The notes beneath the pieces are model-generated. The model did not search any database, was not told the DNA's origin, and saw only the letters and a list, made by a program, of their open reading frames with translations. Below are positions 2,009 through 56,875 of a stretch of DNA of 64,000 nucleotides, piece by piece. Both the position numbers and the translations under genes were made by a program. The DNA comes from Candidatus Bathyarchaeota archaeon (GTDB lineage Archaea; Thermoproteota; Bathyarchaeia; 40CM-2-53-6): assembly GCA_963733055.1 (NCBI GenBank), contig CAVTBR010000003.1, forward strand, positions 224,001 through 288,000. The letters are read 5' to 3'. The first letter of the stretch is position 1; every line of letters begins with the position of its first letter.

Positions 2009-2919
2009 TTACCCTCCATTAACAGCCTTCAGGTAGCGAATGAACCCCTGAACGCTGACCCTGATCGACACTGAGAGATAGTCCGGCATCTCACTAGGGG
2101 ATTGGCCCACGCGACCAGCGGTTTCGTTAGTGAGAATCCTGACAATCTCTTCCTGCACCGTTCCATGCTCGAGCATATTGCAAATTTTGGCGTTCCAGTC
2201 GTTCAATGCTTGAATGTTATCGTCAATCAAATTCGTCGCCTCATCCATCACGCCATAATGGGGAGTCAAGAGTTTTGTTGGCCGGACCTCTTTGATCCGT
2301 TCCAGTGAACCAACCGCTAAGGGGAGGCTGAAGCTTGTGGGAGGAGTTGTCGGAACCAGCACTGGGAAAGTTGGATAGATTATGCCGACCGCGTCCCCGT
2401 CGCAACAATGCCGGTTCCTTCCAAGTCATAGCTTAGGTGGTGGGAAGCGTGCCCCGGCGTCCAGAGCGCTCGTAACGTCAAACCGCGTCCGAGCGAAATC
2501 TCTTCACTATCGCTAACCTCCCTCATACGAGTCCTCTCGACTGGTTGAGGCTTTCCGAATTTTTCCATTAGTTGTCCTCCAAATAACTCCCCCGCGCCCA
2601 CCCACAATCTAGTTGGGTCGGCTAGGTGGGGCAGACCTTTTGGATGGACTCGGATTGAGGCGTTGAGGTATTTTTCCGCAAGGGTACCGCATGCTCCGGA
2701 ATGGTCTAAGTGCACGTGAGTGGGTAGAAGATAATCGATACCGTCCGTTCCAATTCCATTCTCATCCAAGTCATTGGCAATTGCCTGAGCTGAGGAACCG
2801 TAGCCCATGTCGATCAGTGCCCTTTCCTTTCCTGTTACAAGATAGGCTGCGACGGTTCCAGGATTCCCTAGAGCCATGGTGTCGATGATTGAAACGCGGT
2901 CATCGATTTTTCGTAGCAA
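2009..2919 (-). CDS. Metallo-beta-lactamase-fold hydrolase, split by an apparent 1-nt deletion at 2395-2398
   Basis: THVHLDHSG and TPGHASHH motifs; adding one G restores ATGDAVGIIYP and joins ORFs 2380-3147 and 2009-2362 (PHYG motif); likely TTG start at 2919. Confidence 0.85.
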
Positions 2920-2996
2920 CTCTGGCCCACGTCCTTGGATAACGAGACAAGTATATTCGTGTGTCCCACGTTGAAGTCGGGTAGGTTTGATTAAGG

Positions 2997-3341
2997 ATGA
3001 GCCGACCGGAGCTGCCAGACGATCTCGAAGTCTACGTCGACACTTTAGACGAGCAGGGTAGGGTGACATACATTTCTGGATATTTCGACTACAAAGGAAA
3101 TCGTTTGAAGTTTGGCGCGATCGGCATGGAAGGCTATGGAGGCCCAAACATCAATGCGACGCTCTCGGAAGAGACATTGGCAGAGCTGAGAAAAATGAAC
3201 CTGAATGATGAGGGCATTGATGAATTGATTACTACCCTACAAAGAAAGATCATGGAAGGGCAAGCGCACATCCAGCTACGCGAGGAACCACCCGAAACCC
3301 CGAAACCCACAGAGGAAAAGAAAGACAGCCAATCTACTTAA
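2997..3341 (+). CDS. Hypothetical acidic protein
   Basis: 114-aa ORF with protein-like composition filling the gap between genes. Confidence 0.7.
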   Translation: MSRPELPDDLEVYVDTLDEQGRVTYISGYFDYKGNRLKFGAIGMEGYGGPNINATLSEETLAELRKMNLNDEGIDELITTLQRKIMEGQAHIQLREEPPETPKPTEEKKDSQST

Positions 3342-4595: not shown

Positions 4596-5153
4596 TCAAG
4601 CTTTGAACCATCGGAATACCAAGTAATCGACCTTGCTGCGTCGGTTTGGCACGGCTATGGTGAACTGTTTGCGGACGGTTGTTGCGAGGCGTCCCGCAAG
4701 AACTACCTCGAATGGGCCCATAGTTTCCTGTTCCTTCTTCACGGTCACTATAAACGGCGCATGGTCGATCCCTGGGCCATGCTCATAGATTGCGAAATCT
4801 GAACCGAACCTGATTCCTGGCGTCACGATGAGTCCCTTCTCGCGAAGGTTCTCGTAAGCGCTGTAACCTAAGTTGAACTGTTTGTAAGTGTGATTAGCGA
4901 GTTTGAGTAGTTTCGCCCTAGGAACTGACTTGCCCGTCTCTGCATCGGTTACTCGAATGATCTTACGGTCGAGGAGATACAAGCCCTCCATTAGATCGAG
5001 AATGAGAGGGGCTTTGAATTCCTGTTCAGGTTTCGGTTTTGGGATTCCTACGGGTTTCCCGAAGAAACCCATGCGGTAGAGATGTACCGCTTCTGTAAAG
5101 TTCCATACGACGAGCCTAGTGCCGATTAGTTCGGCTGAAGTCACGTCTGCCAT
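4596..5153 (-). CDS. endA: tRNA/RNA splicing endonuclease, catalytic alpha subunit, with crenarchaeal-specific-loop-like insertion
   Basis: GIRFGSDFAIYEHGPGIDHAPF and GRLATTVRK (catalytic Tyr/His/Lys); GFFGKPVGIPKPKPEQEFKAPL loop. Confidence 0.95.
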   Translation of the reverse strand: MADVTSAELIGTRLVVWNFTEAVHLYRMGFFGKPVGIPKPKPEQEFKAPLILDLMEGLYLLDRKIIRVTDAETGKSVPRAKLLKLANHTYKQFNLGYSAYENLREKGLIVTPGIRFGSDFAIYEHGPGIDHAPFIVTVKKEQETMGPFEVVLAGRLATTVRKQFTIAVPNRRSKVDYLVFRWFKA

Positions 5154-10599: not shown

Positions 10600-11634
10600 T
10601 TGCCGACTAAAAGAGAAACGGTGGGTCGCCTCGCTGGTTTCGTGGTTGGATTTGGGGTTCTCCTCGGCTTCCTCTATTATGTCGGAATCGACACTGTGGT
10701 GAGAATCCTACTCAGCGTCAATCCAATCGTCATACTTCTAATGGTAGGGCTCCAATTGTTGGGGTTTGGATTTTACGCGACGGCGTGGTATTTGTTGATT
10801 TTAGCCGCAGGTTACCGTATGCGTTTCTTAACCTGCTTAGGGATAAGTCTCGCGAGCATTTTTGTGGTATACACTATGCCAAGCGGAGTCTTCCTTGAAG
10901 TGGCTAGATGTGTTTTCGGTTCAAGGGAGACCGGCATGCAATTGGGCGAATCCACCTCCACGGTTGTCCTTCATAGAATTCTTTACGTTCTTGGTTTCCT
11001 AGCCACGACCGCATTCGCGCTCTTCGCTCTTCTTAGCGGCGGCATGAACTCGGTTGGCTTGATCGAGTTGGCCTCCATTCCCTTCGTGACGGTGGCTGGA
11101 TTGGTTGTGTTACTCTATCTGTCCTTCGATCCAAAGAAAATCGCGCCAATTCTAAACCGAATCTTGAAGCTAGTACGACCGGTCATTAAGCTGATCCAGA
11201 AAGAAGCGGTCGTTGAGGGGAAGGCCGACCAATTTCTAGCTGAATACAACATAGGCTTCAGGAAGATGATATCGTCAAAACTCCATTTGGTGTTGTCATT
11301 TCTTGCAAGCCTAGGCGATTGGATCTGCTCCGTTGCAATACTTTGGATAGTTCTGGTCTCGCTGGACACGGGTGCATCACTTTGGGCAGTTATGATAACT
11401 GTCTCGATCGGTAAGATGATACAGATGACGCCTGTCGCGATTCCGGGTATGATCGGAGTCTACGAAACAGCCATAACTACTGTCCTCGCGCTCTTTGCCA
11501 TACCCGTTTCGATCGGGGCTTCCGCCGCCATATTATCCCGACTGGTGACCGTTTGGTTGGAACTTCCGATAACCGGGGTCGCCGCATACCATTACGGATT
11601 CAAACTTCTTAACAAATCGGCCTTTCACACTTGA
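10600..11634 (+). CDS. Lysylphosphatidylglycerol synthase TM / UPF0104 flippase-like membrane protein
   Basis: Multi-TM; TPVAIPGMIGVYE and AILSRLVTVW motifs. Confidence 0.8.
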   Translation: MPTKRETVGRLAGFVVGFGVLLGFLYYVGIDTVVRILLSVNPIVILLMVGLQLLGFGFYATAWYLLILAAGYRMRFLTCLGISLASIFVVYTMPSGVFLEVARCVFGSRETGMQLGESTSTVVLHRILYVLGFLATTAFALFALLSGGMNSVGLIELASIPFVTVAGLVVLLYLSFDPKKIAPILNRILKLVRPVIKLIQKEAVVEGKADQFLAEYNIGFRKMISSKLHLVLSFLASLGDWICSVAILWIVLVSLDTGASLWAVMITVSIGKMIQMTPVAIPGMIGVYETAITTVLALFAIPVSIGASAAILSRLVTVWLELPITGVAAYHYGFKLLNKSAFHT

Positions 11635-12429
11635 GTTCTAGTCGCAGGCTGTGAGTTTTGCTCGATCACTGAGATAACTTTCCTTACATAATCGAAGAAC
11701 TCTTGCGTCATAGCGACCTTTTCGCGGGGGCGCGGTAATTCCACTGCAATGTCGGCAACGATGCTTCCGGGCCTGGCCCGCAGGATAATGATTCTGTCAG
11801 CCATGAAAACAGCTTCATGCACATTGTGGGTTACCATTACGAAAGTGTCTGTGACTTTGGTGGGTTCTCGCCAAATCTCAAGAACCTCCTTGCGAAGAGC
11901 GTTGGCGGTCAATTCGTCAAGAGATGAGAACGGTTCATCCATCAATAGAACCTCGGGTTCGACTGCTAGCGCACGGGCTATGCCCACCCTTTGCTTCATT
12001 CCTCCAGAGAGCTCTCGCGGATAAGACTCCTCGAAGCCACTGAGCCCCACCAAGTCTATGTACTTCGCGGCTTTTTCCCGTCGGGCACGCAATGGTATCC
12101 CTTGAGCCTCAAGCCCTAGCTCGACGTTCTCCCGAACATTCTTCCATGGCAGTAACGCGAAAGTTTGGAAAATCATTGAGATCTTCGGCGAGGGCATGGT
12201 TACCTGTTCCCCCTTGGCAAAGACTTGCCCGGAGGTTGGCAGATCCAATCCATCTAGGATCCTCAGGAGAGTTGATTTTCCGCATCCCGAAGGGCCTACG
12301 ATGCAGAGAAATTCGTGTGGAAATACGTCAAAGGTTACCGACTCCAGCGCACGTATCTTCTGGTTACCCGCTTCGAAGGTTTTGGAAACACCCTGTACCT
12401 GAAGTACTGCAGATGCTGCCGTCGCTCAC
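11625..12429 (-). CDS. ABC transporter ATP-binding protein, NitT/TauT family (apparent 1-nt insertion just after the GTG start)
   Basis: Walker A GPSGCGKST lies upstream of the listed ORF in the same frame; LSGGMKQRV and LLMDEPF present; GTG at 12429 overlaps the permease stop and is in frame if one base is removed from CG[A]CG. Confidence 0.9.
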
Positions 12430-14189
12430 GCCTCGAATTTGTATTTATCGACCTGTTTGAGGGAGTAATGCCAAACAGTTCGGTTCATGAGAAAGACGAT
12501 CCCGGCCATCAAGCCTATCGCCACAAGAACCAACTGCGTGTCACCCGTACCAACCGAGATATCAAGAAGATACCCTAACCCTGCAACATGATAGGTTTTA
12601 GTTCCTAGGTTAATGTACTCGGAAGCTATTGTCGCATTCCAACCGCCGCCCCATGCTTGGATACTTCCTAAAATAATCGCGGGCAGAATCGAAGGCAATA
12701 CAACGTTTCTGATGTAGCCCAAACCTCGCAACCCGAAGCAACGGGAGGCTTCAATCACGTCTGAAGGTATTGCCTTAACTGCACCGATTATGTTGAAGAG
12801 AAGGTACCACTGCATGCCCGTAAGCACGAGAACTACTGAGGCCAATTCAAGCCCAAACTCAGAACCGTGGAAGTAGTTAATCACGACGCTGATCACGATT
12901 GGAAACAACGCCAATGCCGGAACGGATTGTGCGATATCGAAGACGGGTAGAAGTGCGTTGAATAGTCTCTCGCTTCGGGCAATTCCTATACCTGCGACTA
13001 ATGTCCAACTCAACGCTATGAGATAGCCAACTAGCAACCGAGCGACCGAACCGAGTGCGTAGCTTGGAAGAAGCGCAAGCTCGTGTCTCAGAACAAATTC
13101 GTGCAAAGCCTCTGGAAGTTTCGGAGGTACAAGAACTCTGAAGATCACGATGGCGAGAACGATTCCGATTACGGTCCCTATCAAACGTGCGAAGCGAGAA
13201 TGCTTGTGCCAGGCAGTTCGAATGTTAAAGTGCGTGAGTGTGTTCGCGTGACGAAATCGAAGTAGGTGTGGGTAGTACCGATGCTCGATCGTTACCACCG
13301 GTTCGACAACGGTCGCGAGTCCATTAGAAACCTTCCTGAGCTCCGTTACAAGCAAATGTGTAGCTCGTGACTGGACTCGTCTATGGCCGGGCAGGACGGA
13401 AGTTTCGTACTTAAATTTTTCCGCATGATCCATTAAGGGATGCCATACGAGACGGTTGATGATCCCAACTATTACGACCAATATTAGTAGACCAAAGATT
13501 GAGGCTGTGATGTTGCCATCAAGCGCCGCCTTGAATATGTAGAATCCCAAACCTGGAAGTTCGTATACTTTGTTAGCAAAGCTAAGGTACTCGCACGCAA
13601 TCAGGAAATACCAACCGCCTCCCCAAGCTAGAATGCTTCCTGAAATGAAGGGAGGATATATCGCAGGAAGCACAACGTCCCGGAGATATTTCGTTCTACG
13701 AATGCCGAAACTGTGAGCTGCCTCCGAAATATCCCGCGGAATGGTCTTCACTCCACCGTAAACTCCGAAGGTAACCGCCCACACCATGCCCGTGAAGATA
13801 AGAATCACTGAAGCGAGTTCTTGTCCAATTACGTTTCCGTTGAAAAGAGAAAGGAAGAGAATGATTACTCCTGGGAGATAGCCCAAAACAGGTATGGATT
13901 GAAGTATGTCGAGAATCGGTATGAGAAATTGTTCCGCACGCTTACTCATCGCGGCTGTAATCCCATAAACAAGTGCGAACGCAACGGACAGTCCATATGC
14001 TAGAACCATTCGGATCATAGTTCGAATGATGAAATTATCCTCATTCAACTGAAACAGGTCAGCAGTGTAACGATAGGAAAAGATCGAATGGAGGCTGGGG
14101 CCCAGAATTGGAATTTGAGCCAACAAATAAAATGATAAGGGGACACCGGCGAGGATGAAGTAGTCTGGCCGAAGACGAAAACCGCCCAC
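12426..14189 (-). CDS. ABC transporter permease with two fused NitT/TauT-type membrane domains
   Basis: Internally duplicated LQSIPVL/AQSVPAL and EAA-loop (ISEAAHSFG, VIEASRCFG) motifs, GGGW motifs. Confidence 0.9.
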   Translation of the reverse strand: MGGFRLRPDYFILAGVPLSFYLLAQIPILGPSLHSIFSYRYTADLFQLNEDNFIIRTMIRMVLAYGLSVAFALVYGITAAMSKRAEQFLIPILDILQSIPVLGYLPGVIILFLSLFNGNVIGQELASVILIFTGMVWAVTFGVYGGVKTIPRDISEAAHSFGIRRTKYLRDVVLPAIYPPFISGSILAWGGGWYFLIACEYLSFANKVYELPGLGFYIFKAALDGNITASIFGLLILVVIVGIINRLVWHPLMDHAEKFKYETSVLPGHRRVQSRATHLLVTELRKVSNGLATVVEPVVTIEHRYYPHLLRFRHANTLTHFNIRTAWHKHSRFARLIGTVIGIVLAIVIFRVLVPPKLPEALHEFVLRHELALLPSYALGSVARLLVGYLIALSWTLVAGIGIARSERLFNALLPVFDIAQSVPALALFPIVISVVINYFHGSEFGLELASVVLVLTGMQWYLLFNIIGAVKAIPSDVIEASRCFGLRGLGYIRNVVLPSILPAIILGSIQAWGGGWNATIASEYINLGTKTYHVAGLGYLLDISVGTGDTQLVLVAIGLMAGIVFLMNRTVWHYSLKQVDKYKFEA

Positions 14190-17867: not shown

Positions 17868-19947
17868 CTAGTGAAGTAACGCGTAGATGAAGAGCGGTGC
17901 TAGTGCAAGGGTTATCGTGTTCAACAGTTTAACAACAACATGCAGTGACGGGCCGGCAGTATCCTTGAGTGGGTCCCCAAGCGTGTCTCCTATAACGGTC
18001 GCTGCGTGAACTGGTGACCCCTTTCCTCCTAGGTGTCCTGCTTCTACGTACTTCTTCGCATTGTCGAGTGCGGCTCCAACATTGTTCATAAACAATGCCA
18101 TGAGCACGCCGACGACTGTTCCAACCATGAGTAGCCCTCCGGCGGCCTCAGCCCCCAACAATACGCCAACTAGGATTGGTCCTACTACGATGAGAAGGCT
18201 CGGATACACCATGTTTCTCAGAGCGGCCTTGGTACTGATGTCGATGCAACGCGAATAATCGGGTTTTGCCTTGCCTTTCATGATTCCTGGGATTGCTTTG
18301 AATTGACGTCTGATCTCACGAATCATTACGGCCGACGTATTTCCTACTGCTTTGATTGCCAAGGAGCTGAAGAAGAAAATTAGCATTGCTCCGATAAAGG
18401 CGCCTACGAAAACTCCCGGCTTCGATAAGTCCACACCTTTTAGTCCAGCCACCTCCAGGAACGCGCTGAAGAGTAGGAAAGCTGAGAGGGCAGCGGATGC
18501 GACGCCGTAACCCTTCGTAAGGGCTTTGGTAGTATTTCCGACTGAGTCTAACTCGTCCGAGACGACCCGAGCTCTTGCAGGTACACCTGACATCTCCAAG
18601 ATCCCGCCCGCATTGTCAGTGATGGGCCCGAATCCATCCATGGCTAACACCATCGGAGTGACAGAGAGCATACCCATCGTTGCAATCGCAGTTCCATACA
18701 GGCCTTTCTGGAACGCTGGGCTTGTAAGATCCAAATTACCGCCCAGCGAAGCGAATCCGTTGCCTAACCAGAATGCAAGCAGAATTGCAGCCCCGATAAC
18801 GATTATGAAGAGTCCGGTAGACGACATACCGACTGCGAGGCCATTGACTATACCCGGAGCAGCGCCACTCTCAGAAGCCAGAGCAATTCCCAAGGTAGGG
18901 CTTCTGTGGTATGATGTGTAATAGTCGGTGATCAATGCAACGGCCAACGCTGCGACTATGCCCACAAGCGAGGCGAAGAAGTAGTCAATATCTCCGTTGA
19001 GAAGAATCATCGTAAGCACGTAAAATCCTAAACGCGCTGATTACGCCTGCAACCACAAGCCCTCGTATTAGTGATGAGAACGGGTTCTCCTTCTTGCGGT
19101 GGTACACGAAGAAAGCCCCAACGATAGTTCCAATCAGACCAAAAGCACGAGCCATCAGCGGAAAAATCAGGCCATTTACTCCAAACATCACATAAACCGC
19201 CGGTGCGATGCCGAGGATCATCGCTCCAATGTTTTCGGCGGTTATGGATTCGAAAAGATCGGCACCACGTCCTGCAATATCACCAACATTGTCGCCCACT
19301 AAGTCGGCTATGACCGCGGGGTTACGAGGGTCATCCTCAGGAATACCCGCCTCGACTTTCCCAACCAAATCGGCCGACATGTCCGCTGCTTTCGTGTAAA
19401 TTCCCCCACCAAGCTGAGCGAATAGTGCGGCGAAACTTGCGCCGAAACCGAATCCAACCATAAGCCGGGGATCTCCATGAAATACTAAGAACAAGGACGA
19501 GATACCAAGTAGGCTCAGGGACACAACGGCCAATCCGAAGACTACTCCACCTCGGAAAGCTATCTTCAACGCCCGGTCTAGGCTGGTCATCGCCCCTCTC
19601 GCCGCGCAAACGTTTGACCTCACCGAGATGAACATGGCAATGTACCCGGCCAAATTGGAAGCAAGCGCACCCAACATGAAACCTGCAGCCGTATCGACGC
19701 CAAGCCAGGGGTTCGATGCGTCGCGGATAGCAACCGCCAGAAGAACGGTGGTAATGACAGCGATTATGCTAATGGTTCGATATTGACGAGCCAAGTACGC
19801 CTCTGCTCCAGTTTTGATTGCGGCGGAAATTTCCCTCATTCGATCAGTCCCGGTGTCCTGCTTCAAGATCCAATTGGCCAGGATTCCTGCAACGGCGAGT
19901 GATAGGAAACTTGCTGCGAATACGTATTCGATTGTCATTCCTTTCAA
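17868..19947 (-). CDS. hppA: Membrane H+-translocating pyrophosphatase, K+-independent type (apparent 1-nt insertion at 19030-19032)
   Basis: GGIYTKAADMSADLVGKVEAGIPEDDPRN, GDNVGD, GNTTKA (Lys, K+-independent signature), GDPLKDTAGP; removing one T restores ISALGFYVLTM. Confidence 0.93.
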
Positions 19948-24735: not shown

Positions 24736-24962
24736 GAGAATCTCGCCCCAACGGATATTTCTCCTTATTGGCACAGTTAGAATTCGCAATTCAAATGATT
24801 AAGCGCACCCTCTTTGAACCGACGGCAACCATGCAGTACTCTTGGCAAAGATGAGTCCTGACGATACCCCGTAGGAGCATACCCCCTCTGATGATTCCTT
24901 ACAAAACTATTTCCAGATTTCTGATGCGAATCATGCTTATAATTTGCTTGAGAATCCTTGTG

Positions 24963-24970
24963 GGAGGTGA
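24963..24970 (+). promoter_or_regulatory. Shine-Dalgarno site for the GT4 gene
   Basis: Perfect GGAGGTGA 9 nt upstream of ATG 24980. Confidence 0.8.
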
Positions 24971-24979
24971 TGATCAAAG

Positions 24980-26153
24980 ATGGGAATCAAAAATCTGCGC
25001 ATAGCCCATGTTTTCAATCTGGCGAAAGAGCCGACACGGCTCCGTTAATGATGGATATTCCGTTTGCAAGGGTTTGCGCAAACTTGGGGTTGACTCAGAC
25101 CTCATCATAGAGAGGCCCTCGCACGTAGCCAGCCTTCCGCAGTGGGAAGATGGCGAGGTTGACCTAAGCCGTCTTGGGGACCCGTATGACCCAAATTGGG
25201 ACGCATTTGAATGGCCCCAGCCAGACTGGATCCGAGTTTGGGATGACAGAAAGTTATGGTTCCCGTACTCCAGAACTCTTCGATGGTCGTCCCTCCTGCT
25301 TATGCTTCGAGACTACGACCTGATAATCGGGCACGCGCCCTTCGCAAAGACAGCCGGCCTGTACAGCAAGCTCTACCGCAAGCGCTACATTATCTTTGAG
25401 GCAGGGTGGATCAGATACCTTCCAATGAAATGGAGAGGATATGCCGCAGCTAGAAAGGGTTACCGCGACGCAGCGATGATCCTCTTCACTAACGTGGATA
25501 CAGAACCGATGCTCATCGAACAGGGCTACTCGAAGATTGCGTACACCCCCTTCGCTATAGACACAGACAAGTACACTCCTTCACAATCTCCCCCACCCGA
25601 TACGCCCACGTTCTTTCACCCGTCTCGCCAGGACTGGCCTGAGAAAGGAAATGACCGACTCTTGAGAGGCTTCGCAAAGTACGTTCAACGGAACCGAAGG
25701 GCGAAACTTGTCGCCGTGGAATGGTACCAGTCCCCAGAGGACCTGGGAAAAAGCAAGCAACTTGTCTCGGAACTCGGAATACAGGAAAACGTCACATGGG
25801 TGCCTGTGATGCCCAAGGGCAAACTGATAGAGTTCTATCAAAAGTCTACGGCCGTCTTCGACCAATTTCTTTTCGGAGCCTTTGGAACGACGACCCCAGA
25901 GGCCATGAGCTGCGGTAGGCCGGTGGTTGGTTACGTGGAGAACAAATATTGGCAGAAGTACCATGCGGAACCACCACCTGTACTAAACGCATCTTCAGCG
26001 GTCGAAATCTTTGATGCAATGGTGAAATTGGAAGACCAGCAACTGCAAGTCGATCAGGGAAGACGTGGACGGGAATGGATAATGCGGAATTGTGATTGCT
26101 CGCTCGTAGCGTCTCAGCAACTTGAGGTATACAAGAAAGTTCTCGAACAGTGA
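24980..26153 (+). CDS. Family 4 glycosyltransferase, join(24980..25026,25049..26153), 383 aa after splicing
   Basis: Spliced N-terminus MGIKNLRIAHVFNLANDGYSVCKGLRKLG fits a GT-B beta1/alpha1; HPSRQDWPEKGND and FGTTTPEAMSCGRPV motifs. Confidence 0.85.
25027..25048 (+). other. Putative 22-nt bulge-helix-bulge mRNA intron
   Basis: Central helix GGCG(25021-24)/CGUU(25043-46); bulges AA^A and AA^U; intron stem GAGCCG/CGGCUC; excision restores the frame and removes TAA. Confidence 0.75.
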
Positions 26154-26263
26154 CTAGCTCTCGTAGATGGAGTCCGTTGCAAGAACAAGGCTTAGGCAAA
26201 CAACTCATGCTAGAATCAGCGTAGATAATAATAGTCCCCACGAGTTCATCAGTCGCGATACTG

Positions 26264-26868: not shown

Positions 26869-28638
26869 CTATAGGCTGTTCCATGTAGGAGATACGATGG
26901 GCGGCGAATCGTTGAAGTACAACCGAAGGAAGACTTCCAAAGCCAGGCAATCCCAAATCTTGTTGTATTCTGCGTTCAGATCCGGGGAGATACTCTTCGA
27001 AAGGACACCTCTAATCCAGTCTGGGTTGATTAGCCCCATGGAGACACAACTGCCCTTGGGTAGGTATTCTTCAGCATAGCTACGCAATTCCCTCTTGTAG
27101 ACTTCGAACGGGTTGGGCCCGAAGCCTTGTTTCTTTTTCTCGAACACTCTTTTGGGTAAGTCATTCGAGAGTGCATGCCGTAAGGAAGCTTTCCCCATTC
27201 CGTCCTTGAACTTGGAGGAGAAGGTCATTGAAAAGGCAAGACCTACCAACTCATTGTCTAGAAATGGCACCCTGGTCTCAACGCTGTGAGCCATACTTGT
27301 GGCATCGTCGACAGGAAGGAAATCATATGTCATCTTCGCGCCGAAATCTGCAAACAGAACCTGTTCCATATAAGGTAAAGAGTTGGAGAAGAAAGGCGTA
27401 AGGAATTCTTGAGAACGATGATGTATCCCTTCTGGAATGGACTGACCGTACACATCAGCCTGATCCGGTGGAACATCCCTCGCTTGCGTGCTCAAATACA
27501 ACTGAACTTTATCAGCAACGTTTACAGGCCGTTTGGAATCAAGCGCTCTATATCTGAAATCGTATCCCGCGAAGAGTTCGTCGCCTCCTAGGCCACTCAA
27601 AACCACCTTGACATACTTCCTTGCCAATTTAGCCAGATAGTAGGGGTAGAGGTTCCGTTTCGGGAAGTCCATGTGCCATATCATGTCCGGAAAAGCATCG
27701 AGCAGATTCTCTTTCACAACGGTTTCGTGATGGTTACAACCAAAGTAGTCGGCGATCGCCTTGGCATCCTGAACTTCATCAGTTTGCTCTCCAAATCCCA
27801 TGCAGAATGTGTTCAGCGGTTTGTCGGAGAATTTTGAAGCGAACGCAACCATTGACGCGCTGTCGATCCCTCCCGAAAGATAGACGCCCACAGGAACGTC
27901 ACTGATCATGTGACGCTCAACGCTGCGACTGAGTACGTTCTTCAGCTCACCATCGGGCAGGGTTTCGAGCTTGGGCTGGGGTTGTAAGGTCCAATACTCG
28001 GTTTCCCTAAGGCCCGAATCATCAAACACCGCGTAATGTCCTGGCAAGATCTTCTTAATCCCGGTAAACATGGTTGAGGAAAGTGGAACGTAGCGAAGTG
28101 AGAGGAAGTATGCAAGTGCGTCCTTGTCGAGCTCACGACGTACGCCGGGGTATTTGAGAAGCGACTTGATTTCTGAAGCGAAAACAAGTTGGCCGTTGAC
28201 GTGCGTGTAGTAGAGGGGTTTGATGCCTTGTCTATCCCGTGCGAGTATGAGTCGCTTGGTCTTGGAATCGTACATCGCCAGAGCAAACATTCCGTTGAAC
28301 ATCTCAAATGCTTTCAGTCCATACTCTTCGTAGGCGTGTATCGTCGTCTCTGTGTCTGAGTTGGTTGAGAACCTGTGCCCCTTTGCCTCGAGATCACGTC
28401 TTAGTTCTCTGAAATTGTAGATCTCACCATTGTACATGACTACGATCGTTTCGTCCTCGTTGTAGATTGGTTGTTTTCCCGTTTTCAAATCAATTATGCT
28501 TAGGCGGCACTGGCCGAGCATGATGTGATCGTCGACGTAGAACCCAAGATCGTCTGGCCCCCTGTGGCGCAAAATGTCGGTCATGTCGCGGAGTAGGGTT
28601 TGGTCTGGGACCCCAGTTGCGCCGCAGATTCCGCACAT
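26869..28638 (-). CDS. asnB: Asparagine synthase (glutamine-hydrolysing) family amidotransferase, paralog 1
   Basis: MCGI, HRGPDD, NGEIYN, LSGGIDS, SGLGGDELF, RVPFLD. Confidence 0.9.
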   Translation of the reverse strand: MCGICGATGVPDQTLLRDMTDILRHRGPDDLGFYVDDHIMLGQCRLSIIDLKTGKQPIYNEDETIVVMYNGEIYNFRELRRDLEAKGHRFSTNSDTETTIHAYEEYGLKAFEMFNGMFALAMYDSKTKRLILARDRQGIKPLYYTHVNGQLVFASEIKSLLKYPGVRRELDKDALAYFLSLRYVPLSSTMFTGIKKILPGHYAVFDDSGLRETEYWTLQPQPKLETLPDGELKNVLSRSVERHMISDVPVGVYLSGGIDSASMVAFASKFSDKPLNTFCMGFGEQTDEVQDAKAIADYFGCNHHETVVKENLLDAFPDMIWHMDFPKRNLYPYYLAKLARKYVKVVLSGLGGDELFAGYDFRYRALDSKRPVNVADKVQLYLSTQARDVPPDQADVYGQSIPEGIHHRSQEFLTPFFSNSLPYMEQVLFADFGAKMTYDFLPVDDATSMAHSVETRVPFLDNELVGLAFSMTFSSKFKDGMGKASLRHALSNDLPKRVFEKKKQGFGPNPFEVYKRELRSYAEEYLPKGSCVSMGLINPDWIRGVLSKSISPDLNAEYNKIWDCLALEVFLRLYFNDSPPIVSPTWNSL

Positions 28639-29756: not shown

Positions 29757-30720
29757 TTAGCTGTCTCCTCGAACCTTCTGGTTTAAGATTGGTCTAGTTG
29801 ACTCTGACAATCTCATCGTGGAGGAGAGAATCCACCCGAGACCTAGAACAAACTTTGTCATACCGCTGAGGTATAGTCGGGCGGTTAGGAGTTCATGGCG
29901 CCTGATACGGACAAGAGAAAAGTGAGCAAGAGTTAGCCAAGTCATAATCAACGGTAATATCCCGAGGTTCGTAAGAGTGTGCGCCAGATTGTTCCTCACC
30001 ATGATGGGCATGACCTTCGTGGCGGAGGGATCCTCTGTGTATGTAGCGTGTATTTCGTGCCTTACAATTGCACTCGGGCAAGTCCATATTTCCCATCCAA
30101 GTTTACGTATCCTCTCGGCGAGGTCGGTGCTTTCTGCGCCTGCGAAATAGGTCGGGTTAAACAGGAAAGTTCTGGACAATAGGTCTCTACGAAACATAAA
30201 TGCGGCGCCATCGAAAGCTTCTACGATAGTGGGTTTGTCAAACTGGCCCTTATCCACCTCTAGGTAACCGATATTTGCATATAGATTGGCATTTTTGCTG
30301 AACCTCCTCATTCCCACCGAATTAATTGAATTAGAATCTTTGATGAGCACTTTTGGCACAACCACTTTGCAGCGGTCCCCGTGGCTGTTGAGAGCGCAGT
30401 ATGAGTTCGGATATCGTGTTTGATGCCAGCCTAGTGTCAGGGTTGAGGACGAATATGACCTGACCCGTAGATCGAGCCACACCGAGATTGTTTCCTCCTG
30501 TATACCCTAGGTTCGACCCACTGCGGAAGTACCGAGCTAGGCTTTCCTCAGCAATTGCGCGCACTTCGTCGTTACCTGCGTTGTCGACGATCACCACTTC
30601 AAAGCTGGCAAAGTCTTGTGTCCTCAACGACGCTAACAGTTTCTTGATTAATCGTGCGTCGTTGTAACTAACTATTATTAGGCTCACGAGTGGGAGTTTC
30701 GACAACCCTATCTCATTCAA
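29757..30720 (-). CDS. Family 2 glycosyltransferase (apparent 1-nt insertion at 30398)
   Basis: IIVSYN, VDNA, NLGYTGGNN, LNPD then GAAFMFRR and AESTDL; removing one T gives SELIRALNSHG. Confidence 0.85.
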
Positions 30721-37190: not shown

Positions 37191-38036
37191 CTACAAGAGT
37201 CTCGCTGCGATCATTTGGATTCTACGACTTTGTTCTCTCATGACGAATTCTCTAAGAGGTGGGTCGAATGGGGAAATGAACGGGTCCTCTGACCCTATTT
37301 GTGACTGAACGTACCCTCGCAGCATGTTGACTGAACCTTTTACTCCAATCGATCTGACCAGGGCGTTCTTTGAGATTCGGCCTAACGCATAGAGGGGATG
37401 GTAGCCGAGGGTACCCATGGCCGCACCCCAATACGCAAACTGGTGGGTAGTCCCTCTCGGGCGAACATGTTGGTATTGTAGATCGTTGAAAGGCCGAGTC
37501 TCCAGGCCCTTCATCGCGGCGGTGTACAACAGCCAAGTTTCCCACCCTGCCCTGACCGGATACTGACCGCCCACATCGACCCAGAAACTGCTCTTGATCA
37601 TTCGGCCGCTCCCTGAAACCGCGTGTTCCCGAGTACGGGCACCAGCGGATGAGGGTAGGCCACTGGCGACAACGAGTCGCTCGTTTGATTGCATCCTTGA
37701 AATTAGCGCTTCGGCGTAACTGGTGGGATAGGAGCAATCGTCTCCGCTTATCATGAAGAAGCCTGTTCGGAGGCCGGTTTCGGCGTTTTGTTTCCATGCT
37801 AAGTTGATGTTGGATGGGACGCGCCTGATGTCGTATCCCCTGTTCGGCAAGGTCAACATGTTAATCGTATTATAACGCTCTTTGTAGTTCAGGGCAATTC
37901 GTCCGGTTCCGTCCGTCGAGCCGTCATCAACGACAATTACGCGCTCGGGTGAAATGGTCTGTCGCAGCAGTGAATCGAGAGTAGGGGGAAGGTGTTGGTT
38001 GGCGTTTCTGGCGACTACGATGACCCAGTAGCTCAA
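37191..38036 (-). CDS. Family 2 glycosyltransferase
   Basis: VVARN, VVDDGSTD, SGDD, GSGR, GWE motifs. Confidence 0.85.
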   Translation of the reverse strand: MSYWVIVVARNANQHLPPTLDSLLRQTISPERVIVVDDGSTDGTGRIALNYKERYNTINMLTLPNRGYDIRRVPSNINLAWKQNAETGLRTGFFMISGDDCSYPTSYAEALISRMQSNERLVVASGLPSSAGARTREHAVSGSGRMIKSSFWVDVGGQYPVRAGWETWLLYTAAMKGLETRPFNDLQYQHVRPRGTTHQFAYWGAAMGTLGYHPLYALGRISKNALVRSIGVKGSVNMLRGYVQSQIGSEDPFISPFDPPLREFVMREQSRRIQMIAARLL

Positions 38037-38039
38037 ACC

Positions 38040-39914
38040 CTAAGCCACCAACGCCTCAACCTGAAGCTTGGCGGCATCGACATGCTCGCTTTCAATGAAG
38101 ATTTTGTGCCAGAAATGAAAGCCCAGTAGTTGCCAGAGAAGGACTTGCAATCGCCGATCCCTGACCGTCCCAGTCGTCTCCTCGATGATATGCTGGACCG
38201 TTTTCGTTTTGAAGTATCTGGGGAGGACATCTGAATCGGGTAGGATTTGGCGAATCAGTTCTCCTAATTCCCCGTTATACCATGCGCGTACGTCCACGCT
38301 GAATCCCCATTTTGGTTTGCGCATACTCTCCTCAGGAAGCACCTTCCGGACAACTTTCCTTAACAGCAATTTACCAAATGTCCCGGGGGCAAATTTCAGC
38401 TTCCAAGGGATCGCAGTCATTAGATCCACGATTCTGTTATCCAGTAGGGGAACTCTAAGTTCAAGTGAACTTGCCATACTCATTGAATCGTCGACCGCCA
38501 GCAGATCATCGACCAGCTTCGTGCGCAGCTCGGCATTCATAACGCCCTGAACGAAATCGACCCCTTCAAAGAACGATGCGTAATGCTCCTCTAGATTGGG
38601 GACTGAATCCCTTTCCTTGAATAACTTCTCGTCAAAAGAATCGGGAAGTGTTCCCGCCAGAATCAAGTATTCGCCCGCATTATCGCCGAGCGATTGTAGA
38701 ACCCTGAAACGGTTTTGTGTCTTGATGCCTAGCGGTATCGCCTGTATGAGACGGCTTGGCACTCTTAACGCCCCTCCAATTCCTTTTCTAGAAAGTTCTT
38801 GGATTCTCAGGGCATTCTGGTACCTGGAGTAGTACCCGCCGAAGACTTCGTCTCCCCCGTTTCCGCTCAGGCACACTTTCACGTATTTGTGGACCAGTTC
38901 GCACACGAACCATGGGTATAGATTGTATTTGGGTGCTTCCATGTGCCAAATCATTTTTGGATACAGTTTCATGGCCTGCGAGCTGTCGACTGTGATTTCA
39001 TGGTGGTCTGTTCCGAAATGTTCCGCGATCAGTCTCGCGTCCCTGAACTCGTCGGTTTCTTCTCCGAAGCCCATGCAGAAAGTCTTCAACGGTTCACGTG
39101 ATGCCTTTGCGGCATAAGCAACCAGCGCGGAAGTGTCCAATCCCCCGGAGAGGAAACAGCCAACGGGCACATCCGCGACGAGCTGGTCGCGCACAGATTC
39201 TGCGAGTGCGATTTGAAGCTCCTCCACCAACTGATCTTCATTGGCTGAAGCTTCGATTGATGGAATTGTCCAGTAGTGCTCAATCCTGACCGACTTGTTT
39301 TGGTAGACGAGATAACTGGACGGGGGCAGTTTTCGTATGCCTTGAAGTAGTGTCCGATCCCCTGGTATGTATCCTAGATTGAGGATTGTGTACAGAGACT
39401 GACGGTCTACCGTTCGATCAACGGGGGCTTGCAGAATGGCTTTCATTTCAGAGGCGAAGAGCAACACCTCGCTCTTGAGAAGGTAGTAAAGTGGCTTGAT
39501 GCCCATACGGTCCCGTGCAAGGATCAGCATGTTCTTGGTTGAATCCCACAACGCGATTGCGAACATGCCATTGAGTTTACTTACGAAAGACTCTCCGTAC
39601 TGCTCGTAACCGTGGACAATCACCTCCGTATCTGATTGGGTTCTGAATTCGTGACCTAACTGCTGGAGTTCCAGCCGTAGCTGGCGGTAGTTGTAGATTT
39701 CACCGTTGTAGGTTACATGCACGGTTCCGTTCTCGTTGTGGATAGGTTGGTGTCCGCCCTCGATGTCGATTATGCTTAGGCGGGCGTTAGCCAGTCCAAC
39801 GCTACTGTCCAGGTAGAAGCCAGTATCGTCTGGCCCACGATGGTGTAGGACTTCGATCATGCGGCGGAGAAGAGCCTCATCGTTGAGGCCGGAAAAGCCA
39901 GCTATGCCACACGT
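38040..39914 (-). CDS. asnB: Asparagine synthase family amidotransferase, paralog 2; start codon reads ACG
   Basis: ACG-TGT-GGC-ATA-GCT-GGC (x-CGIAG) 8 nt after GGAGG; HRGPDD, NGEIYN, LSGGLD, GGDEVF. Confidence 0.88.
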   Translation of the reverse strand, partial: TCGIAGFSGLNDEALLRRMIEVLHHRGPDDTGFYLDSSVGLANARLSIIDIEGGHQPIHNENGTVHVTYNGEIYNYRQLRLELQQLGHEFRTQSDTEVIVHGYEQYGESFVSKLNGMFAIALWDSTKNMLILARDRMGIKPLYYLLKSEVLLFASEMKAILQAPVDRTVDRQSLYTILNLGYIPGDRTLLQGIRKLPPSSYLVYQNKSVRIEHYWTIPSIEASANEDQLVEELQIALAESVRDQLVADVPVGCFLSGGLDTSALVAYAAKASREPLKTFCMGFGEETDEFRDARLIAEHFGTDHHEITVDSSQAMKLYPKMIWHMEAPKYNLYPWFVCELVHKYVKVCLSGNGGDEVFGGYYSRYQNALRIQELSRKGIGGALRVPSRLIQAIPLGIKTQNRFRVLQSLGDNAGEYLILAGTLPDSFDEKLFKERDSVPNLEEHYASFFEGVDFVQGVMNAELRTKLVDDLLAVDDSMSMASSLELRVPLLDNRIVDLMTAIPWKLKFAPGTFGKLLLRKVVRKVLPEESMRKPKWGFSVDVRAWYNGELGELIRQILPDSDVLPRYFKTKTVQHIIEETTGTVRDRRLQVLLWQLLGFHFWHKIFIESEHVDAAKLQVEALVA

Positions 39915-47787: not shown

Positions 47788-49150
<1,363 letters not shown>

Positions 49151-55136: not shown

Positions 55137-55898
55137 TTAGCGTGACTTAGATAGGTTGCGACCCATTTTGGTGAAATGGATTCGCCAAAAGAGAGTGAGC
55201 ATGCCGATTCCGTGAAGCCACATGTCTTTCAAGAGTCGCTTTAAGGGGGTTCTGCCGCCCTTTTTTTCAGTCCAATGAATTGGGATTTCCTTGAGAGTGA
55301 AACCCAACTTTCTAGCCAGGACTATCACCTCTGTATCCCAGAACCAAGAATCGCTCTTAGCTTCCACATCCAATTGTTCGACGAGCTTTCGTGAGAAAGA
55401 CTTGAAGCCGCATTGGTGATCGTGGACACCGGTGTTGAATAATATACGAACCATTCCGTTGTATGCAATTGAGCTCGCTCTCCTAAGGAGAGGTCGATTC
55501 GTGATTGATCCTTGGAGATACCTTGAGCCCGTGACAAGATCAAACTGCTTACCCATCTCAATCAAATTACGATAGGCATCGAATTTATCCAGGTCTGTAG
55601 CCAAATCCACATCAACGTATAGGTACATTTCACCCGGCACTTTTCTCCAGGCTTCGCGCAAGGCCTTTCCGCGACCTAGGCGACGGTCGTTCTGTAGGTG
55701 AATAATGTTCGGGTACTTCCATTTCAACTCGTCAACGGTGGCGGATGAATTAGATCCGTCCTCTGCGATCAGTAAGGTGAAATTCGGATTAATTGCCGCA
55801 GTGGCTTCCTCTAGTCTGACCGAAGTCGCCCCAAGGAACTTAGTGTCCTTGTAAACCGGAAGGGTTACTACAATTTGGCGTGCGTTGTTTCGGGACAA
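55137..55898 (-). CDS. Family 2 glycosyltransferase (dolichyl-phosphate glycosyltransferase-like)
   Basis: AEDGS, GRGKAL, DVDLATD, GSRY, DHQCGFK, WFWDTE. Confidence 0.88.
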   Translation of the reverse strand: MSRNNARQIVVTLPVYKDTKFLGATSVRLEEATAAINPNFTLLIAEDGSNSSATVDELKWKYPNIIHLQNDRRLGRGKALREAWRKVPGEMYLYVDVDLATDLDKFDAYRNLIEMGKQFDLVTGSRYLQGSITNRPLLRRASSIAYNGMVRILFNTGVHDHQCGFKSFSRKLVEQLDVEAKSDSWFWDTEVIVLARKLGFTLKEIPIHWTEKKGGRTPLKRLLKDMWLHGIGMLTLFWRIHFTKMGRNLSKSR

Positions 55899-55908
55899 TG
55901 AACTCGCC

Positions 55909-56875
55909 TTACGCTACTTCTGCCACGAGCTCCTTGGCTGCGGCTCGGATTGCTCCCTCGCTGTTGAGCTTAGGGTTCCAACCGAGTTTCATCAATTTCG
56001 CGACTGAGAGATGCATGACTTTCACATCTCCGAACCAGCCGCGCCCCCCATCAACACCCCCAGTCACTTTCATCTTTACCTCCCGCAGGCCCATTTCTTT
56101 AACGACGACCTCCGCGATCCGTTTCACACTTACCTGGTCGGGTGAACTGAGGTTGTAGACTTCAACCCTCTTATCTGAGCGCAGAAAAGACTCAGTCGAA
56201 ATCGAGATCGCGTCTTAGGCAATCGGTGATGTGGACGTACGACTTTGTCTGGGTACCGTCGCCCAGAATTTCAATTTCGTTAGGGTTTGTTTTCAGCTTT
56301 TGGATGAAGTCCCATAGAATACCGTGCCGCGAACGGGATCCAACACAGTTTCCCAATCGGAGTATCAACCCCCTCATCGCATGAGTGTAGGCGTATGCGG
56401 AAATGAGTGATTCACAACCAAGTTTGGAGGCGCCGTAGGTGGATATTGGAAGCATAGGCCCATAGGTTTCTGGCGTGGGTAACTGTGCCGCTTCGCCGTA
56501 AACGGTTGATGTCGATCCAAACACAATGGTTTTGGCATCATGACTGACGCGCATACCCTCAAGAAGCTTGAACGTTGCGAGGAGGTTCTCCTCAAAATGT
56601 ACGGAAGGGTCCACCTCACCTACTCGCACTTCGGGGTTTGCTGCCAAATGGTAGACAACCGACACACCGTGCAGAACCTCTTGAATATTCGGAATTGCCT
56701 TAAGATCAGCTTCAACGAACCGGAAACGTTCCCTGCTTTTGGCCTGACGAAGGTTTTCCATTCTTCCGCTGCTGAGGTTGTCGAGGACGACCACCTCATC
56801 TTCGTGCGCCAGGAGAGCGTCGACTAGATGGCTGCCTATGAACCCGGCGCCCCCGGTTACAAGTACCTTCCTCAA
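55909..56875 (-). CDS. UDP-glucose 4-epimerase-like SDR (apparent 1-nt insertion at 56215-56216)
   Basis: TGGAGFIGS, HLAANPEV, YGASK, GDGTQTKSY, GRGWFGDV; removing one A gives DCLDAISISTESF...VYNL. Confidence 0.88.

Follow-up and report, generated by a model that had tools for sequence, protein, structure and literature searches.

Within the 64,000-nucleotide (nt) stretch of Candidatus Bathyarchaeota DNA analyzed here (the window; G000:C3:224001-288000 of a 2.88-Mb, three-contig assembly), a gene for a glycosyltransferase of family 4 (GT4) is interrupted by a 22-nt insert at 25027-25048. We infer, with a probability of roughly 0.8, that the insert constitutes an intron of the bulge-helix-bulge (BHB) type that would be removed from the pre-mRNA by the splicing endonuclease EndA and the ligase RtcB. 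The original prediction, made from the letters of this stretch, had proposed such an intron, and the proposal gained strength from homologous genes, from independent assemblies and from cbf5 of the same genome as an internal control, whereas its accompanying suggestions of intron mobility and of splicing-controlled glycan variation did not.

The interrupted gene lies on the forward strand, and its parts can all be read in the sequence as the original prediction described them. A perfect Shine-Dalgarno motif (GGAGGTGA, 24963..24970) stands 9 nt ahead of ATG 24980, the frame opened by this ATG comprises 22 codons and is closed by TAA at 25046-25048, and the body of the GT4 gene is a 381-codon open reading frame (ORF; 25008-26153) in the +1 frame relative to the ATG. 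Exon 1 (24980..25026) would consist of 15 codons followed by the two opening bases of a codon for Asn (MGIKNLRIAHVFNLA + AA), and exon 2 (25049..26153) of the remainder of the glycosyltransferase including its stop codon, with T25049 supplying the third base of the split Asn codon. Owing to an AA repeat at the borders, the product would be unchanged if 25025-25046 or 25026-25047 were removed in place of 25027-25048. Exon 2 holds the Pfam matches of the body, PF00534 at 43.4 bits (cut-off 26.4) and PF13692 at 29.9 bits (cut-off 27), and the former places the protein in Glycosyltransferase family 4 (GT-B fold, Glycos_transf_1); the N-terminal domain PF13439 scores 17.2 bits, which is under its cut-off of 28.5. 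About 40 nt 5' of the ATG is an element at 24932..24947 (forward strand) with a TTATAA box (24937-24942). All 16 of its nucleotides are the same in the window and in an orthologous locus, L017, while the rest of the upstream region is identical at 26 of 100 positions in an ungapped comparison, and the element may serve as the promoter of the gene.

The limits of the insert are set by homologues. A total of 85 homologues were found, and 20 of them were fetched and sorted by their N-termini. Eleven of the 20 have a complete N-terminus with a contiguous motif at the site in question (for example, MRIAHVFNLANDGY in P0013), two start at MAND, six start at L/MRKLG, and one (P0006) carries an out-of-frame prefix like that of the window ORF. 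Seven extra residues at the insert site, which the original prediction had regarded as the mark of a simple 1-nt error, occur in none of the 20, the homologues being contiguous through HVFNLANDGY. At the DNA level, where GCGAA, the 22 nt and then TGATGG stand in the window, GCGAATGATGG or a variant synonymous with it is found in all 10 of the loci that are uninterrupted (6 distinct sequences), and removal of the insert gives HVFNLANDGY in agreement with the uninterrupted homologues in both protein and DNA. Since its bounds are fixed by homologues, the 22-nt insert is defined independently of any fold, up to the 2-nt ambiguity of the AA repeat. The cuts expected from the BHB motif coincide with this homologue-defined insert, so that the earlier claim that the EndA rule removes exactly 25027-25048, restores the frame and yields LANDGY is borne out by homologous proteins and DNA alike. 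The exon-1 peptide is identical to the N-terminus of the uninterrupted P0013 at 9 of 10 residues. Among paralogues from the same genus the motif was matched in 4 of 7 loci, all four of them insert-free, and a search of Rfam gave no match to the 22-nt insert.

Two side observations concern relatives of the GT4 gene. An uninterrupted homologue with 60% identity lies on contig LBWB01000003.1 (L014/L024/L069), which is labelled Candidatus Woesebacteria, a bacterium, and the other closest relatives of the gene are archaeal or unlabelled; the Woesebacteria-labelled homologue could reflect horizontal transfer or a mis-binned contig. A paralogue from the same genus (L003, G006:C18:155153-156410) is split into frames of 165 and 306 residues, between query residues 87 and 108, and the same paralogue in G010 is a single frame of 438 residues.

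Diverged copies of the insert are present in independent assemblies, the outcome that the original prediction had set against an artefact of the reads. L017, an independent 262-kb metagenome contig whose protein is 84% identical, carries 22 inserted nt at the corresponding position, and the partial sequence L018 begins within the insert. Between the window and L017, identity is 16/22 in the insert, 43/47 in exon 1 (including a synonymous CTG to TTG change) and 930/1105 in exon 2. Four further orthologues, P0095, P0100, P0102 and P0006 (84, 69, 66 and 74% identical to the window protein beyond the prefix), are known from gene calls in which the body frame continues across the insert and a prefix of 17 residues precedes the protein, and the equal length of these prefixes implies the same length of insert in all four. 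In a protein alignment (A2), all 12 other members (63-84% identical) lack the N-terminus or, in the case of P0006, read through the insert, whereas homologues with at most 60% identity mostly have the true N-terminus; the database entries of this orthologue clade that were examined are all either truncated or supplied with a false N-terminus. From these comparisons, the insert appears to be fixed at constant length across orthologues that are 66-100% identical and to be confined to one orthologue clade, with paralogues and more distant homologues free of it. The orthologous DNA came from one metagenome scan, in which the close clade was represented by L017 and L018 only. Protein-based scans of species-representative genome contigs returned no orthologue with more than 60% identity, 401 genomes searched at the level of the class held no match above 53%, and a scan of viral contigs returned no relative of the GT4 gene. 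Among three DNA runs of one study, a single run gave short contigs (three) on the gene, which covered 25295-25487 and 25827-26227 and so lay beyond the insert.

The interrupted gene is under purifying selection in both of its exons, the ratio of nonsynonymous to synonymous substitutions (dN/dS) between the window and L017 being 0.12 at a dS of 0.64, and the nine codons from the junction to an internal TTG differ between the two by synonymous changes only. In L017, a TAG within the insert closes the body frame and a TGA just 3' of the insert closes the frame of exon 1. Given selection on the gene and an insert that closes every frame in L017, the insert must be got rid of.

The RNA spanning the borders of the insert is predicted to fold into the substrate of the archaeal splicing endonuclease. 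A BHB motif consists of two 3-nt bulges separated by a 4-base-pair (bp) helix, with relaxed forms designated hBH and HBh', according to the accessible text of PMC6379350, and this layout is found in relaxed form at the GT4 site. In the canonical arrangement, an outer helix h is formed by AUC (25017..25019) and GAU (25050-25052), U25020 remains unpaired opposite the 3' bulge, and the 4-bp central helix H pairs GGCG of exon 1 (25021..25024) with CGUU of the intron (25043..25046), with two G-U pairs. The 5' bulge AAA (25025..25027) would be cut after 25026 and the 3' bulge AAU (25047..25049) after 25048, and between the 5' bulge and the 3' strand of the central helix stands the inner hairpin h' (25028..25042), a 6-bp stem GAGCCG/CGGCUC with an ACA loop in which 25028-33 pair with 25037-42. 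All of these helices and bulges were listed in the original prediction, and three of them, the inner hairpin, the AAA bulge and the central helix, are recovered by ViennaRNA. For a given site and a length of 22, the combination of a 4-bp helix and an inner stem of 3 bp or more is present at 1.1e-3 of positions, and that with a 6-bp inner stem at 6.9e-5, as counted over 5.77 million genome positions; the AA repeat permits three registers. The position of the fold at the insert, unlike its energy, is beyond chance.

Comparison of the orthologues suggests that the structure has been conserved. Four of the five changes at paired positions keep the pairing, and the other changes fall in the loop or at the second base of the 3' bulge. 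In the outer helix, C25019 is U in L017, which turns a C-G into a U-G pair; in the inner stem, C25032 is replaced by U between the window and L017, again turning C-G into U-G; and in the central helix, U25046 is C in both L017 and L018, which turns G-U into G-C. The fourth change, C25037 to U in L018, gives G-U in place of G-C if the opposite strand is unchanged there. A change of G25033 to A, by contrast, loses the loop-closing pair, and the inner hairpin of L017 keeps 5 bp. In P0100, for which the protein alone is available, the second pair of the inner stem is forced to be G-C where the window has A25029-U25041, so that both sides have changed.

A second interrupted gene in the same genome provides an internal control. 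The cbf5 gene contains a 19-nt insert (G000:C2:202833-202851, reverse strand; L038 1740-1900, L039 2248-2296) that divides the catalytic Asp codon after its first base, and the reading frame is broken after ...GHGGTL, with PKVTG... in another frame. This is the site of the crenarchaeal cbf5 intron as given in the available portion of PMC2738675. The cbf5 insert is predicted to fold with a 3-bp outer helix, an unpaired A, a 4-bp helix CCCU/GGGG, AGA and CAA as the bulges, and an inner stem of 3 bp, which is the same layout as that of the GT4 insert down to the base left unpaired across from the 3' bulge. The Asp codon is restored when each bulge is cut behind its second base, and the cut rule is thereby checked within this organism. 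A cbf5 match was found in 56 of 61 related genomes, and the insert is present at the Asp codon in 30/30 fetched loci of related genomes of the same order; its length was measured as 17-21 nt in 24 of these loci, and the other six were judged by eye. In 19 sequences from the same genus (18 distinct), 99.4% of the pair cells hold standard pairs, three pairs have changed on both sides, the covariation score is reached by 0 of 500 shuffles, and pairing falls to 27-60% when the pairing partners in the alignment are slid. The cbf5 intron appears to be ancient and order-wide, and by strong inference from these comparisons, mRNA splicing at relaxed BHB motifs would be routine in this lineage.

The host encodes both the splicing endonuclease and the ligase that would be needed. 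A gene for a catalytic-type EndA subunit is located in the window outside the GT4 locus (4596..5153, reverse strand; PF01974 82.1 bits, PF02778 49.7 bits), and its best relatives of solved structure are 3p1z_B, 2cv8_A, 3ajv_B and 2zyz_B, which we take to be catalytic subunits of crenarchaeal heterotetramers. As it happens, this gene is about 20 kb from the interrupted GT4 gene. The genome has two PF01974 paralogues, of which the second (contig C1; L016 1474-2040) is divergent, as a structural subunit would be, and RtcB is intact (576.8 bits, an open frame of 507 residues). The genome is rich in tRNA introns, which aragorn called in 29 of the mere 33 tRNA genes that it detected, some of them doubtful and with lengths that are implausible (as great as 2476 nt); many further tRNA genes probably have interruptions at multiple or atypical sites and are therefore missed by standard detection.

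In the proposed pathway, the GT4 gene would be transcribed from the promoter about 40 nt 5' of ATG 24980, and the RNA at the borders of the insert would fold into the 3-bp outer helix, the unpaired U, the 4-bp helix with its two 3-nt bulges and the 6-bp hairpin. EndA, which is probably heteromeric because the genome has two paralogues and may on that account tolerate relaxed motifs, would cut after the second base of each bulge, and RtcB would ligate the exons. The joined message would read ...HVFNLA-N-DGY..., as uninterrupted homologues encode it directly. The intron is most likely a tolerated, long-fixed insertion, and a function of its own is not evident.

Several observations weigh against an intron removed by splicing. 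The motif is a relaxed one, with two G-U pairs in the central helix and a 3' bulge closed by a mere 3-bp helix after the unpaired U. The minimum-energy fold adds a U25020-A25047 pair to the elements described above, which results in a 5-bp helix and a 2-nt 3' bulge, and the canonical form with a 4-bp helix, 3-nt bulges and U25020 unpaired is an alternative fold. Fold energies do not differ significantly from those of shuffled sequences, with z ranging from -0.5 to -2.1 (-1.6 for 61 nt, -2.1 for 151 nt and -1.9 for 47 nt), and being unremarkable in this respect, the fold alone proves nothing. In P0006 the six inner pairs cannot all be made in this register, and the covariation rests on few events, the DNA of the insert being represented by two full copies and one partial copy and four further inserts being read through proteins. 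From an ATG, the body frame of four orthologues runs across the insert without a stop. Finally, the assembly is rich in frameshifts, and broken genes are common in it.

These observations bear on an alternative that we consider improbable, though less so than the others, namely that the insert is never removed. The gene would then give an altered or truncated enzyme, started at ATG 25008 or at the internal TTG before RKLG, or would be a pseudogene, and the hairpin would be a neutral scar or a translational regulator. Existing gene calls do match such unspliced products (359 residues from L/MRKLG and 380-383 residues from MFSIW/MCSIW), no stop closes the body frame within the insert of the window or of the four orthologues, and the assembly holds many broken genes; in those four orthologues, an unspliced protein with another N-terminus is formally possible. 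In the L017 cluster, however, the TAG in the insert closes the body frame (the cluster has 8 members, 6 of which are the 359-residue L/MRKLG calls), and a pseudogene is excluded by the dN/dS of 0.12. In the spliced frame, conservation at the protein level extends over exon 1 and the nine codons that precede the TTG. Translation of the insert would give a peptide that is not conserved (SRHGSV, SLSASA, GFSSPV), whereas the base pairing appears to be. A start at RKLG would in addition drop N-terminal residues that are conserved in 11 of the 20 fetched homologues and that presumably include the first strand of the GT-B N-terminal domain.

Translational recoding, either by a programmed +1 frameshift or by a ribosomal hop over the hairpin such as that in phage T4 gene 60, is a still less probable way of joining the two frames. 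The body is in the +1 frame, and exon 1 is followed by a stable hairpin and a stop codon, features by which recoding is stimulated in other systems. Yet there is no conserved slippery site, the frame of exon 1 ending at TAA in the window and at a TGA three bases later in L017, and no matching take-off and landing codons flank the 22 nt. A frameshift would also insert about seven residues that are absent from every fetched homologue, and in cbf5 of the same genome, only exact removal of the 19 nt yields the catalytic Asp.

An event at the DNA level is in our estimate just as remote as recoding. The insert, a hairpin flanked by the 2-nt direct repeat AA, could be the footprint of a small mobile element with duplication of AA, perhaps precisely excised in part of the population as an on/off switch, and it lies in a surface-glycan cluster, a kind of locus that is often variable. 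Against a switch stands the fixation of the insert at the same site and length down to 66% identity, which makes it far older than a switching element predicts. Against a mobile footprint, a blastn-short search of its own genome found no second copy of the insert and nothing longer than 17 nt, the five matches to the insert pattern in species-representative genomes were all bacterial and are taken as chance, and no transposase or homing endonuclease gene is located beside the insert. The mobile micro-introns envisaged in the original prediction find no support here, since there is neither a second copy in the genome nor a related copy in species-representative genomes, and frame-restoring BHB candidates are in no excess over controls in the scans described below.

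An artefact of long-read sequencing or assembly can be dismissed, for even though at least six window genes are split and a CGCG/GCGC motif was read in the shift region of five, the GT4 insert is 22 nt and not 1 nt, as the original prediction had pointed out in separating it from CGCG-type errors, diverged copies occur on contigs of other assemblies, and the four read-through calls are from JGI and Logan, their clusters also containing members from ENA and NCBI. The six split genes, identified by Pfam, encode a metallo-beta-lactamase (2012-3147, reverse strand), an ABC ATPase (11628-12460, reverse), an H+-pyrophosphatase (17871-19947, reverse), a GT2 glycosyltransferase (29760-30720, reverse), a glutamate dehydrogenase (47788-49147, forward) and an epimerase (55898-56875, reverse). 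A CGCG or GCGC motif lies in the shift region of all but the glutamate dehydrogenase, and likewise in that of a broken GT4 gene on contig C1 near 661,700. The latter (C1:661807), the one broken gene among 12 PF00534 matches, was rejected as a candidate intron-bearing gene, having an apparent 1-nt shift near GCGC and no insert. These frame breaks have the appearance of 1-nt errors made systematically at a methylated motif in a long-read assembly.

Genome-wide scans for further introns that would restore a frame, which the original prediction had called for, singled out cbf5 and the GT4 gene only. A scan for relaxed BHB motifs that join ORFs gave 38,529 matches genome-wide against 37,739-38,988 in shifted controls, and a stricter scan gave 849 against 885-963, with no excess in either. 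A filter for coding potential left 104 ORF pairs, of which the 47 junctions without a Shine-Dalgarno start were tested by Pfam; candidates with such a start were set aside as likely gene boundaries. Among the 47, cbf5 alone was convincing. The junctions in GGT (L077) and ParB (L089) look like plain frameshifts and were rejected, and at the epimerase and lactamase junctions, where the second piece has no family match, the Pfam test is uninformative. A scan for short first exons gave 9 matches against 3-8 in controls and recovered the GT4 gene. The filters used in these scans are crude, and further introns could be missed by them.

A broader proposition, which we regard as rather doubtful, is that Bathyarchaeia and related archaea routinely express genes by way of EndA/RtcB splicing of mRNA, so that it would be more than the peculiarity of one gene. 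In its bolder form, the efficiency of splicing may gate the amount of a surface-glycan enzyme made from the GT4 gene. The splicing-controlled glycan variation of the original prediction remains unsupported speculation, the insert being fixed at constant length across orthologues with 66-100% identity.

The GT4 gene is surrounded by genes for glycan and sugar-nucleotide metabolism, including a nucleotidyltransferase, epimerases, GT2 glycosyltransferases, asparagine synthase paralogues and methyltransferases. The two asparagine-synthase-like paralogues of this cluster, of 589 and 606 residues (26872-28638 and 38043-39860, both on the reverse strand), lie beside epimerase, GT2 and methyltransferase genes and may have a role in sugar amidation rather than in asparagine synthesis.

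If the GT4 insert is spliced as proposed, insertions in ordinary protein genes can be rescued by the machinery of tRNA splicing, and such introns can persist for a long time. Intron-bearing genes of this kind are mis-annotated by gene callers, and should the broader view of mRNA splicing as a standing process be correct, new mini-introns can still become fixed in ordinary accessory genes, and some of the archaeal metagenome genes recorded as 'frameshifted' or 'N-terminally truncated' are intron-bearing. The cbf5 and GT4 sites together offer a clean pair of in vitro substrates from one organism. A BHB intron in the cbf5 pre-mRNA of Crenarchaeota was reportedly described by Watanabe in 2002 and Yoshinari in 2006. 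In 2020, cbf5 was still referred to as "only one example" of a BHB intron in an archaeal coding sequence, beside the case of a 5' untranslated region (5' UTR) in Haloferax, in the portion of PMC7714728 available to us, and the cbf5 introns reported so far, in the accessible parts of the sources, are from Desulfurococcales and Sulfolobales. The literature searched, which consisted mostly of open papers without their supplements and in part of partial texts, held no later report of another coding-region BHB intron and no report of cbf5 introns in Bathyarchaeia. As judged from sequence comparison, from structure and from the cbf5 control, the insert in the GT4 gene is very probably an intron of the tRNA type, in what would be the second family of archaeal protein genes to have one, and the cbf5 intron described here extends that intron to a lineage beyond Desulfurococcales and Sulfolobales.

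The closest known parallel is the cbf5 intron of Crenarchaeota, the splicing of which is reported as shown in the available portion of Yokobori 2009 (PMC2738675), where its hosts are said to have hetero-oligomeric EndA. Like that intron, the GT4 insert needs exact removal for a working protein to be made. Unlike it, the GT4 insert resides in an accessory glycosyltransferase and not in a core RNA-modification enzyme, belongs to a Bathyarchaeia-type lineage, is placed 15 codons into the gene, at phase 2 of a codon for Asn, and is one for which splicing is proposed. A second parallel is the BHB intron in the 5' UTR of the HVO_1309 mRNA of Haloferax volcanii, which according to the accessible text of Schwarz 2020 (PMC7714728) was confirmed in vitro and by knock-down. 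As proposed for the GT4 insert, the archaeal splicing endonuclease there has a substrate outside tRNA and rRNA, and the intron is needed for normal expression; unlike the GT4 insert, it is situated in an untranslated leader in which no reading frame is interrupted, and its host is a euryarchaeon, all as far as the same text goes. The GT4 insert resembles the BHB introns of tRNA and rRNA in its motif, its size range and the enzymes presumed to act on it (EndA and RtcB), and differs from them in that its substrate is an mRNA without a tRNA body, with exons that code for protein. In eukaryotic HAC1/XBP1 mRNA, a short, frame-changing intron with stem-loops is removed without the spliceosome by the endonuclease IRE1 and an RtcB-type ligase, in a reaction that is regulated by stress. 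For the GT4 insert the endonuclease would be EndA rather than IRE1, and regulation is not evident; like the HAC1/XBP1 intron, it is short, frame-changing and bounded by stem-loops, and its exons would be joined by an RtcB-type ligase (XBP1 and RtcB are both mentioned in the available part of PMC8718801).

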